The notes beneath the pieces are model-generated. The model ran no database searches. It worked only from the letters and a program-made list of their open reading frames with translations, and was not told the DNA's origin. 64,000 bases of DNA from Alphaproteobacteria bacterium (GTDB taxonomy: Bacteria > Pseudomonadota > Alphaproteobacteria > Micavibrionales > UBA2020): NCBI GenBank assembly GCA_027483355.1, contig JAIXUW010000292.1:138308-202307 (forward strand), given 5' to 3'. This document shows positions 53,831-55,048 of the stretch, one piece after another; within the stretch, counting starts at the first letter, position 1; each line of letters begins with the position of its first letter. The position numbers and the translations under genes were made by a program.

Positions 53831-55048
53831 TTACTTCCACTTTTTCACAAAGGCGCATAATTCATGCCAACAATGCGTGGAGTGGATTTCCCAGAGAAAA
53901 CTATCCTCCGGTTTAAAGCCAGAGCGCGGTATTTCCGAGTAGAAAGTATCAATTTGTTGTTTGATATACTCGACCGTCGTGCCCGCCTTGCGAAATCCAC
54001 CACCGTAATTGGCCCAATACGAAGTCTGAAGGTCTTCGATAACATACACACCCCCGGGTTTCAAGGCAGACCACAATTCTTGGAAGGAAACGATTTGTTG
54101 GTTCATAGTATGGCCTCCGTCGTCAGTGATGAAATCTAAAGTTTGAAACACACACACGCAGAAAAAAGTGAGATCGCTTCAGCGCACAAATTCACGCGTG
54201 AATGCGTACCATACACGCCTCCGCCTTCAGAGACAACTTTCCTCAAAAACTCTCGATTGGATTGGTCGCCAATAAAGAGTTCGTCGACTTTGGATCTGAA
54301 AGGTTCAGCACAGGTTGCATCATATTCGACCATATGCAGAGTGAGCTTGTTGCCAAAAAAGTCTTTCCAAACTGGGATGGATCCACCTGGACCGTACGAC
54401 ATTCCACAACCAAGGCCGATTTCTAGCATTTTGACAGGCCTATCTCTCAAATGTTGAACCATAAAACCGTACGCATACTGCGACAATAAAAATATGGAGT
54501 GAGAAGAAAAAAAAATCGGGGCGGATGCTCAGTGTCACCCGACACACCTGATAATTATGAGTAGTAACCTTGTCGGTGATTTGAGAAAACTTAGTGGCCG
54601 AGCTTTTGAACTCAGAAGCTCTAAATTCAAGCCAGTCGGCGTAAGGCAGAGACGACTTTGTCAGCGCCTTTTGTTAGAAACCTCGCAACTTGTTAGTGTA
54701 TTTTGCAAATGTGAACATAAAAAACGTAAACATGCCTCTTTTTCCTTTTTGCAAAAGCCGGTCTCAGTCTCGGAAGCAACGCGGATTGATTCGCTCAGCT
54801 GGCGTGTCAAAAGCGAAATCTGCTTCTCCAGAGAATCTACTTTTGAGATCATCGTCTTGAACTCCACTTGGCTAAAAGAAATTTGAGTACACGCCGTGGT
54901 TAGAAAACAAGGAAGGTCGAAACCACATTGCTTTTTCAACATACCTGCTTTGAGGCGGCTGGTTCACCGGTTTGAAGAGTACCATTGCCACTACAAAGGC
55001 AACGACTACGGCCACAAGAATAACGGGAAACTTGCCCTGCGCGGCCAT
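53831..55048 (-). CDS. membrane-anchored class I SAM-dependent methyltransferase, 5 exons (310 aa)
   Basis: Exons (minus strand): 55048-54945, 54871-54736, 54667-54548, 54477-54210, 54135-53831. Spliced product: MAAQGKFPVILVAVVVAFVVAMVLF (signal anchor) ... ITDKVTTHNYQ|YAYGFMVQHL..MLEIGLGCG (SAM motif I) ..GGGVY|DFITDDGGH..LKPGGVYVIEDL. The TDK-x3-H-x-Y / LEIGxG / DDGxH / PGG pattern matches a bacterial-type O-methyltransferase family. Confidence 0.8.
54136..54209 (-). other. spliceosomal-type intron 4 of the methyltransferase gene (74 nt, GTACGC..TTTAG)
   Basis: Removing it restores GGGVY-D-FITDDGGH across a frame break between track ORFs 54136..54486 and 53831..54157. Confidence 0.8.
54478..54547 (-). 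other. spliceosomal-type intron 3 (70 nt, GTGTGT..CGCAG)
   Basis: Joins ..TDKVTTHNYQ to YAYGFMVQHL.., recreating the conserved TDKxxxHxYxxxY motif. Confidence 0.75.
54668..54735 (-). other. putative intron 2 (68 nt), apparent GC-AG type (GCATGT..CTAACAAAAG)
   Basis: This is the only in-frame solution of typical size. It contains two CTAAC branch-like sites. The non-canonical GC donor lowers confidence. Confidence 0.45.
54872..54944 (-). other. putative intron 1 (73 nt, GTATGT..TTCTAAC..TTTCTTTTAG)
   Basis: Follows the signal-anchor exon (..PPQS AG|GTATGT). Shows donor, branch-like TTCTAAC, a pyrimidine tract and an AG. Phase 2 is resolved by the first nt of exon 2. Confidence 0.6.

Follow-up and report, generated by a model that had tools for sequence, protein, structure and literature searches.

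Spliceosomal introns are processed only in the nucleus, and a few chlorovirus genes are known to carry them. In the pandoraviruses such introns are present in 7.5-13% of genes, at about 1.2 per gene (PMC5995976), and the mirusviruses have yielded 37,703 introns with a modal length of about 80 bp and with branch motifs of the forms WCTAAC, CYSAC and CTGAC (PMC12768974). Virus-encoded sugar methyltransferases have also been described: in PBCV-1, domain 3 of A064R and the A061L protein act as rhamnose 2-O- and 3-O-methyltransferases for capsid glycans (PMC9614988). The subject of this report is a split gene, at positions 53831-55048 on the minus strand of a 64,000-nucleotide stretch of contig JAIXUW010000292.1 (that whole stretch is hereafter called 'the window'), whose five exons are predicted to encode a membrane-anchored sugar O-methyltransferase and whose surroundings have the appearance of a viral genome.

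We place a probability of about 0.7 on the reading that this is a functional, nuclear-type spliced gene of a large DNA virus, captured from a eukaryotic host together with its anchor and introns. In such a scheme, four U2-type spliceosomal introns of 68-74 nt would be removed from the pre-mRNA to yield a 310-residue type II membrane protein, in which a cytosolic tail of six residues leads into a single transmembrane helix and a helical stalk, and the catalytic domain at the C-terminus faces the lumen of the endoplasmic reticulum (ER) or Golgi. The gene would have been captured from its host as genomic DNA, anchor and introns already present, and would have been resident for long enough to match the codon usage of the virus; retention of the introns would in turn imply transcription in, or access of the transcript to, the host nucleus. 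Splicing in vivo, topology, localisation, substrate, direction of transfer and origin of the introns are all things that we infer.

The gene model and its splice junctions

The gene is read from 55048 to 53831, on the minus strand as are all of its exons and introns, with its ATG at 55048 (in a GCCATGG context) and its TAA stop codon at 53833-53831. An earlier note on this DNA had proposed that the excision of four segments, of 73, 68, 70 and 74 nt, would heal a series of frame breaks and restore a 310-residue protein; when the reverse complement of 55120..53780 was rebuilt in this manner, exactly that product was obtained, as a 933-nt open reading frame (ORF) containing every motif that had been quoted.

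Exon 1 (54945-55048; 104 nt) begins with the start codon (55048-55046), which is the sole ATG upstream within the open frame, and encodes the six residues of the predicted cytoplasmic tail and the hydrophobic signal anchor FPVILVAVVVAFVVAMVLF. Intron 1 (54872-54944; 73 nt, phase 2), read-through of which encounters a stop codon, runs from GTATGT through TTCTAAC (28 nt from the 3' end) to TTTTAG; these boundaries carry the best signals among several frame-compatible options and are not positioned by homology. Exon 2 (54736-54871; 136 nt) encodes a long helix at residues 35-69, the presumed stalk between the membrane and the catalytic domain, and is a necessary part of the model because its length, equal to 1 modulo 3, brings exon 1 (which ends in phase 2) into frame with exon 3. 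Intron 2 (54668-54735; 68 nt, phase 0), the least certain of the four, runs from GCATGT through ACTAAC (25 nt) to AAAAG, and is thus putatively of the GC-AG type, its acceptor being AAG. The reading frame of exon 3, which has no ATG of its own, is open only from 54673; the acceptor of intron 2 must therefore lie at either 54668 or 54656.

Exon 3 (54548-54667; 120 nt) ends in the invariant motif TDKVTTHNYQ, and displays homology to the closest relative of the protein (P0001, described below) from 54646 onward. The position of intron 3 (54478-54547; 70 nt, phase 0), which runs from GTGTGT through CTCAC (22 nt) to TCGCAG, is set by gap-free alignment to that intronless homologue, in which THKYQ is directly followed by FAYGF. 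Exon 4 (54210-54477; 268 nt) encodes the S-adenosylmethionine (SAM)-binding part of a Rossmann domain, and includes both LEIGLGCGMSYGPG, which holds an insertion characteristic of a eukaryotic clade, and the motif GDQ. Intron 4 (54136-54209; 74 nt, phase 1) runs from GTACGC, the only in-frame GT donor available to it, through CTCAC (33 nt) to CTTTAG, and is again positioned by gap-free alignment (GGGSY followed by DFITDDGGH). Exon 5 (53831-54135; 305 nt, including the TAA) encodes the catalytic core, with residues D214, D215, H218, E243, D244, C298 and C303. A perfect 14-nt palindrome, ATTCACGCGTGAAT, was also observed at 54190-54203, near the 5' end of intron 4.

The donors (in order GTATGT, GCATGT, GTGTGT and GTACGC, as previously listed) and acceptors (TAG, AAG, CAG and TAG) give the termini GT-AG, GC-AG, GT-AG and GT-AG, as is characteristic of U2-type introns; the earlier statement that all of the segments end in YAG holds for introns 1, 3 and 4, and fails for intron 2. 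Branch sites resembling CTAAC, which had been reported for several of the introns, were found in all four of them, as CTAAC in introns 1 and 2 and as CTCAC in introns 3 and 4, always 22-33 nt ahead of the 3' end. The introns are T-rich (35-40% T) and have a GC content of 40%, versus 47% in the exons, and none of their lengths is divisible by three. Self-splicing introns were ruled out by the lack of any Rfam match and by a length of 68-74 nt, which is too short for group I or group II. Scans for bacterial promoters and terminators returned matches at chance level only.

Splice-like signals by themselves are not above chance in this DNA. A loose intron pattern (donor hexamer, CTAAC or CTCAC, YAG, and a length of 55-95 nt) is matched 9 times in the window versus about 11 times in shuffled sequence, and a scan for frame-joining segments yields hundreds of spurious candidates. 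The intron status of the gaps is proven instead by an uninterrupted homologue that aligns without gaps at junctions 3 and 4. A search of 5.8 billion proteins identified as the closest relative a protein of 308 residues (P0001; 54% identity, 100% coverage), which is encoded by a single uninterrupted 927-bp ORF at 4971-5897 on the Logan contig L001. Comparison by tblastx indicated that this contig is continuous at the points where the window displays gaps of 70 and 74 nt, and BLASTP alignment of the two proteins is gap-free from about residue 93 to the C-terminus, passing both the Q120-Y121 and the Y209-D210 junctions; of all frame-compatible pairs of donors and acceptors, only the proposed ones keep the alignment free of gaps at junctions 3 and 4.

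The possibility that the frame breaks are indels introduced during assembly, which the earlier note had itself raised, was checked against independent data. A second Logan contig (L002, from run SRR16126875) is 100% identical to positions 58023..53490 of the window, and includes all four introns. Since the two are identical, and since the differences from the homologue are insertions of 70 and 74 nt rather than indels of 1-2 nt, assembly artefacts can be dismissed as the source of the breaks.

Purifying selection on the exons is strong. Identity to the gene on L001 at the three codon positions is 0.75, 0.83 and 0.37, the proportions of nonsynonymous (pN) and synonymous (pS) differences are 0.21 and 0.87 (the latter saturated), and the probability that 310 stop-free codons would arise by chance is about 4e-8. 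The gene is real, and on this sequence evidence it is almost certainly functional and most likely spliced as predicted. These same observations bear upon the idea that the locus is dead or in decay: it would be either a host fragment residing in a cytoplasmic virus that does not splice, or part of a whole region of viral DNA, endogenised and in the course of assimilation into a host chromosome, whose introns mark its decay. Introns in endogenous nucleocytoviruses have indeed been treated as a sign of decay (PMC12768974), and a relative lacks the variable block in which the gene is found. That idea nevertheless appears very unlikely, given that all five exons are open, that the catalytic residues and the splice signals of all four introns are intact, that the substitution pattern is strongly that of coding sequence, and that the neighbouring ORFs are long and intact, with relatives from three other samples preserving the order of the genes.

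Junctions 1 and 2 lie in the N-terminal third, where their placement is argued from frame logic, from the quality of the signals and from the anchored architecture of the family. For intron 2, GCATGT is the only donor that would produce an intron of approximately 70 nt, and its context (GAG followed by GCATGT) matches those of the other donors. Frame-compatible GT donors do exist at 54780 (giving an intron of 113 nt), 54840 and 54867, with resulting lengths of 113-200 nt. The rare GC-AG intron announced in the earlier note is therefore retained as the best candidate, by virtue of its length and donor consensus, and is qualified by the availability of those GT donors and by its AAG acceptor.

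A different model for the 5' region would use a GT donor for intron 2 (54780, at a cost of 15 stalk residues) or the acceptor at 54656, or would begin translation at an internal ATG (at 54942, or at the methionine of KTMISK) to produce a soluble enzyme. Such models draw upon the existence of frame-compatible alternatives, the non-canonical GC...AAG pair, a stalk that is not conserved, and an exon 2 frame that remains open throughout intron 2. They are considered improbable, if still credible, because GAG followed by GCATGT fits the pattern of the xAG-GTATGT donors while the GT alternatives lie in poor context, because only the GCATGT choice gives an intron of about 70 nt and a protein of matching length (310 versus 308 residues), because the anchor is a trait of the family, and because two of the three introns mapped in the genome of the closest homologue likewise end in AAG.

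The predicted enzyme and its eukaryotic family

An AlphaFold2 model of the 310-residue protein, built with 35 homologues, has a mean predicted local distance difference test (pLDDT) score of 87.9, with values above 90 through both of the conserved junctions, and is composed of a transmembrane helix (residues 7-24), the long helix at 35-69, additional stalk helices, and a Rossmann-type domain from about residue 120. The highest 19-residue Kyte-Doolittle window (3.15) covers residues 7-25, behind a six-residue tail that contains a lysine, so the N-terminal signal anchor that had been proposed from the sequence is also apparent in the model. The layout is predicted to be that of a type II membrane enzyme of the Golgi or ER, and additional conserved cysteines would fit a lumenal, oxidising location.

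The only Pfam match to the protein is a sub-threshold one, to Methyltransf_24. Searches against sequences from the PDB were far more informative: phmmer matched residues 122-308 to the chains 8ia9_A (E=3.7e-20) and 3ssm_A (E=5.1e-20), and the 13 best structural matches were all chains of SpnK or MycE (E from 2e-15 to 1e-10, with SpnK and MycE as the top folds at about 3e-15), followed by catechol-type (COMT-like) O-methyltransferases at about 1e-6. The resemblance to bacterial antibiotic-sugar O-methyltransferases that had been remarked upon earlier is thus found at the level of sequence (about 4e-20) and of fold (about 3e-15). In the PDB sequence file, the molecule name of the SpnK entries 8IA9 and 8IAA reads 'demethylmacrocin O-methyltransferase'. 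Sequence and model both assign the catalytic domain to the MycE/SpnK/OleY class, whose members are SAM- and Mg2+-dependent sugar O-methyltransferases, and the corresponding activity is predicted for it.

According to a passage of PMC9275233 that cites Akey et al. 2011, the metal in MycE is held by Asp275 and Asp304 (with Glu303), and His278 is the catalytic residue. In alignment these residues (Asp275, Asp304, Glu303 and His278) correspond to D215, D244, E243 and H218 of the window protein, and D214, D215, H218, E243 and D244 are invariant across 35 eukaryote-type, 28 bacterial and 8 viral sequences. By analogy, Asp215, Glu243 and Asp244 would coordinate a metal ion that in turn binds two neighbouring hydroxyls of the sugar, and the hydroxyl that attacks the SAM methyl group would lose its proton to His218. 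A hydroxyl of a hexose or deoxyhexose, on a glycan of the secretory pathway that belongs to either viral glycoproteins or the host surface, would be the likely substrate. The active-site residue Tyr208 of MycE aligns with G145, within the GCGMSY insertion, while the conserved Y148 lies three residues away, in a loop where the alignment is uncertain.

An N-terminal auxiliary domain of about 150 residues reportedly precedes the catalytic domain of MycE in the description of its structure. That domain is absent from the window protein: matches to MycE and SpnK begin at residues 180-208 of those chains and at residues 122-125 of the query, whose first 105 residues are instead occupied by the transmembrane helix and the stalk helices. 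The protein thus appears, from sequence and model, to share the catalytic domain of MycE and presumably its chemistry, but not its full architecture.

The relationships of the protein were examined with a bootstrapped neighbour-joining tree of 83 sequences (190 columns, 100 replicates), which is distance-based and not a maximum-likelihood tree. The window protein and its closest homologue form a pair in 100/100 replicates, and both fall within a clade of eukaryotic membrane-anchored proteins (from fungi, a diatom, a rotifer and environmental sequences) that leaves out every sampled bacterial and IMG/VR viral homologue in 99/100. Three features set this clade apart: (i) a hydrophobic N-terminal anchor, found in 62 of 103 eukaryote-type proteins versus 2 of 80 bacterial homologues; (ii) a six-residue G-C-x-M-x-Y insertion (G143, C144, M146 and Y148), which 34-35 of 35 clade members possess and at which 28/28 bacterial and 8/8 IMG/VR sequences have gaps; and (iii) Cys298, shared by 31 of 35 clade members and by none of the 28 bacterial sequences. 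The 'viral' homologues from IMG/VR (33-40% identity) were rejected as close relatives, being anchor-less, of bacterial or phage type, and grouped with bacteria.

Bacterial homologues are common (in Pirellulales, Chlamydiae and Rhodobacteraceae, among others), are about 240 residues in length, and display 35-46% identity over the catalytic domain. The gene is nonetheless eukaryote-type in sequence and was not taken directly from bacteria, although the family is ultimately bacterial. The earlier note had supposed a horizontally acquired bacterial enzyme that was subsequently given an anchor; direct acquisition followed by 'eukaryotisation' within the virus could appeal to the abundance of bacterial homologues (with up to 46% identity over the catalytic domain), and to the position of the eukaryotic clade beside Chlamydiae, Dependentiae and Verrucomicrobia. 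It is rendered extremely improbable by the placement of the window protein within the eukaryotic clade (99/100), by its pairing (100/100) with a homologue from an intron-bearing genome, and by the insertion, Cys298 and anchor that it shares with the clade (versus 0/28, 0/28 and 2/80 among bacteria). Since the anchor is a trait of the eukaryote-type family, it is an ancestral feature of the clade, not a later addition to the window gene.

The sister group of the eukaryotic clade is formed by sequences from Chlamydiae, Dependentiae and Verrucomicrobia, which are largely symbionts of protists; such a sister group offers a hint of how the family reached eukaryotes. Some of the sister sequences have N-termini that resemble signal peptides. 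Within the family, a partial 382-residue protein from Thalassiosira sp. (P0032) contains two nearly identical catalytic domains in tandem, and reflects either a duplication or fusion or else an artefact of its gene model. In both Pseudogymnoascus destructans (L018, 1-432) and Hortaea werneckii (L020, 1-1234), a gene for an MFS_5/MFS_1 transporter divergently adjoins the methyltransferase homologue, and contig L001 encodes an MFS transporter (8-1344) about 3.6 kb upstream of its methyltransferase, as well as a GT92 glycosyltransferase. These neighbours may reflect a functional link, through transport of substrate or SAM or through glycan synthesis.

Virus-like setting and origin of the introns

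The window is tiled by approximately 42 long ORFs, on both strands and with tiny spacers between them. Pfam recognises only SET, RabGAP-TBC, BTB and RING domains among these ORFs, about 5 of the 42 having any domain at all. The window contains no tRNAs and no Rfam families, and a megablast search of phage records returned no match. Individual proteins have very few relatives: a 1535-residue product has one (69% identity) among 5.8 billion proteins, the RabGAP protein (456 residues) has two, and an 887-residue product has a dozen among 1.84 billion representatives. The contigs that encode these relatives, from ERR3589585 and ENA ERZ7462356 (the same virus, on a 208-kb contig), SRR11430616, SRR28285599 and SRR17938973, are equally rich in orphan genes and retain the order of the genes, including an 887-like ORF followed by one of 1,550-1,900 codons. 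This lineage is best described as a genuine but unclassified group of orphan-rich large DNA viruses, which could be assigned to neither Nucleocytoviricota nor Mirusviricota, nor to the pandoraviruses or chloroviruses.

Within that setting, the methyltransferase lies in a block of about 7.9 kb (53800-61700), together with ORFs of 189, 551 and 857 codons and a 1.4-kb stretch that is free of ORFs. In one relative (L021/L022), the orthologue of a 154-residue gene (41% identity) directly adjoins the orthologue (38%) of the ORF at 61699-63405, and the block is lineage-specific because these flanking orthologues are adjacent there. The methyltransferase gene was found in none of the relatives examined. 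The earlier description of the neighbouring genes as intronless is borne out to the extent that a check is possible, with about 40 long uninterrupted ORFs and three ORF-free stretches remaining (1-1650, 17330-18770 and 57630-59050). The frame-joining scan of the window, which is dominated by chance hits, produced no second convincing split gene, and the overlapping ORFs 12931-13449 and 13388-15016, considered as a candidate, proved to be two separate genes.

The distribution of introns is the principal argument concerning their origin. Four are present in one gene of 0.93 kb, and none were detected in about 58 kb of other coding DNA; if insertions were independent and uniform, the probability that the other three would fall in the same gene as the first is approximately (0.93/58)^3, or 4e-6. 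Capture of intron-bearing genomic DNA is favoured over gain within the virus because of this clustering, and the earlier suggestion that the gene 'was given' its introns therefore probably reverses the history. The codon usage of the gene is that of its surroundings, with a GC content at third positions (GC3) of 0.521 and a relative synonymous codon usage (RSCU) distance of 0.119, versus 0.518±0.039 and 0.122±0.024 for the genes of the window (the copy on L001 has a GC3 of 0.638), which implies either a capture that is not recent or a donor of similar composition.

Introns have been mapped in four cellular homologues: after residue 44 in P. destructans (phase 2, 71 nt), at residue 175 in Adineta (phase 0, 423 nt), at residue 252 in H. 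werneckii (phase 0, 71 nt), and between the equivalents of residues 146 and 147 on the metagenomic contig L042. The P. destructans intron was considered as a possible counterpart of intron 1, both being in phase 2 and just past the anchor; the region cannot be aligned, and positional homology cannot be claimed. The genome represented by contig L001 is itself intron-bearing, as its Cupin_8 and RidA Pfam profiles run across changes of frame, and three of its junctions were mapped (GTATGT donors, lengths of 47-59 nt, two of three ending in AAG), while its methyltransferase is intronless. That contig presents the reverse of the window, with an intronless methyltransferase amid interrupted genes for MFS, Cupin_8, RidA and probably GT92 proteins; one possibility is that its copy arrived via a cDNA or a virus.

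Gain of the introns within the viral genome, after acquisition of an intronless copy and by way of intron-generating transposons or de novo gain, would accommodate the intronless closest homologue, the lack of any match among the four cellular intron positions, and an exon codon usage that is fully viral and implies long residence. It would also agree with the variability of mirusvirus intron positions among close relatives, and with the proposal that viruses serve as vectors of introners (PMC12768974, PMC12166617). We regard it as the less likely course of events, given that all four introns reside in one gene and none were detected in about 40 others, and that they are mutually unrelated beyond their splice signals. 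An introner (transposon-generated) origin was rejected on the latter basis: pairwise z-scores among the four introns are at most 2.9, as explained by shared signals, and no copy of any of them was found elsewhere in the window or in the loci compared with it.

Several observations weigh against the reading of a captured viral gene that is spliced in the nucleus. Junctions 1 and 2 lie in non-conserved sequence and are not fixed by homology, and intron 2 is doubly non-canonical in its GC donor and AAG acceptor. The exact spliced protein was not found in a collection of 15 billion proteins that includes transcriptome assemblies. A SAM-dependent enzyme with a lumenal catalytic domain would need import of SAM into the Golgi or ER. 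Comparison with cellular homologues showed that none of the four mapped introns coincides with intron 3 or 4; no candidate donor sharing the intron positions was identified and the closest homologue is intronless, so that inheritance of the introns from a donor is argued from their clustering. Finally, Pfam searches for hallmark genes (major capsid protein, packaging ATPase or terminase, DNA polymerase and others) recognised none in the window (approximately 42 ORFs, covering 64 of the 292 kb of the contig) or in 75 kb from its relatives, and the genome is called virus-like on the basis of its architecture and orphan content.

With those points included, capture by a virus followed by nuclear splicing is still the preferred account. 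Only tentatively, and with considerable doubt, would we extend it to the full proposition that an undescribed clade of orphan-rich viruses has a spliceosome-dependent nuclear phase, and that one of its members has kept all four functional introns of a captured host gene, GC-AG intron included, while the exons drifted to viral codon usage.

Several additional features of the region deserve mention. The 887-residue ORF and its long partner (1,535-1,908 residues) form a same-strand pair, at 45986-53271 in the window, that recurs on L022 (13597-20825), L023 (7573-14819), L184 (10001-18621) and L185 (10001-17814), with identities from 77% down to about 30% over the five contigs and usually with a RabGAP-TBC gene nearby; neither ORF contains a Pfam domain, and the pair resembles a set of core genes from a still undescribed clade of large DNA viruses. 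The ORF-free stretches at 1-1650 and 17330-18770, whose longest open frames give no Pfam signal, could be non-coding, could harbour heavily split genes, or could specify non-coding RNAs. Within the third, nine exact copies of TAACGTAAC occur in 290 bp (58142-58432), versus 0.27 expected in the entire window, six of them on the plus strand followed by three on the minus strand, amid longer imperfect direct and inverted repeats. Both of the Logan contigs that match the window end near this array (at 58023 and 57751), which could be a replication origin or a regulatory, protein-binding array. Lastly, two minus-strand frames within 29419-31017 (29896-31017 and 29419-29892) are in register, with a single stop codon (29893-29895) between them, and could represent two adjacent genes, a read-through arrangement, or a recent nonsense mutation.

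Comparison with known systems

Spliced viral genes and viral sugar methyltransferases have both been documented, and the gene described here extends that biology rather than overturning it. Three elements appear to be new: the occurrence, in a virus, of a eukaryote-type MycE-like enzyme of the secretory pathway; the presence of four introns in one gene of a region that otherwise lacks interruptions; and the unclassified lineage that carries it. If the gene is spliced as predicted, the lineage would depend upon the host nucleus, and the introns would serve as a marker of lifestyle for a group with few recognisable genes, as well as offering a clean case for studying how viruses acquire and keep intron-bearing host genes. 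If the capture reading is true, the gene would constitute a natural example of a virus moving intron-bearing cellular DNA between genomes, and a first handle on a eukaryotic family of Golgi-type glycan O-methyltransferases. That family of membrane-anchored MycE-like proteins is widespread and uncharacterised (in fungi, diatoms and rotifers), and O-methylation of secretory-pathway glycans is a plausible role for it.

The closest relatives of the window protein are its eukaryotic homologues, which are annotated as 'hard-surface induced protein 5' or misannotated as tetracenomycin or oleandolide sugar O-methyltransferases, and which share its layout of anchor, stalk and catalytic domain, its insertion and its cysteines, at 40-55% identity. 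A literature search found no paper on the function of the 'hard-surface induced protein 5' family. Those homologues are cellular genes with zero or one intron elsewhere in the sequence, whereas the window copy resides in a virus-like genome and has four.

Among enzymes of established function, the nearest are the actinomycete sugar O-methyltransferases MycE, SpnK, OleY, ElmMI and TylE (PDB 3SSM/3SSN/3SSO and 8IA9/8IAA), with which the catalytic domain shares 26-29% identity and the same DDG-H and ED residues. These bacterial enzymes are soluble and about 400 residues long, with an auxiliary domain, whereas the window protein has a transmembrane anchor and stalk, and its N-terminal 110 or so residues lack similarity to them. 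Relative to MycE it also adds the GCxMxY insertion in the SAM loop and the conserved cysteines, while Tyr208 of MycE has no clear counterpart; the substrate of the MycE-type enzymes is a macrolide, and that of the window protein is presumably a glycan.

The methyltransferases of PBCV-1 provide a functional precedent, being likewise virus-encoded, SAM-dependent sugar O-methyltransferases that require a divalent cation; they are soluble, cytoplasmic and intronless, whereas the window enzyme is predicted to reside in the secretory pathway. The introns themselves resemble those of giant viruses, which are short (about 70-80 nt) and of GT-AG type, and the CTAAC and CTCAC motifs fit the WCTAAC and CYSAC forms of mirusviruses. 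Like those introns, they would point to a nuclear phase. Unlike the introns of pandoraviruses, chloroviruses and mirusviruses, those of the window are confined to one apparently host-derived gene (at about 0.06 per kb over the window), and one of them is putatively of the GC-AG type.

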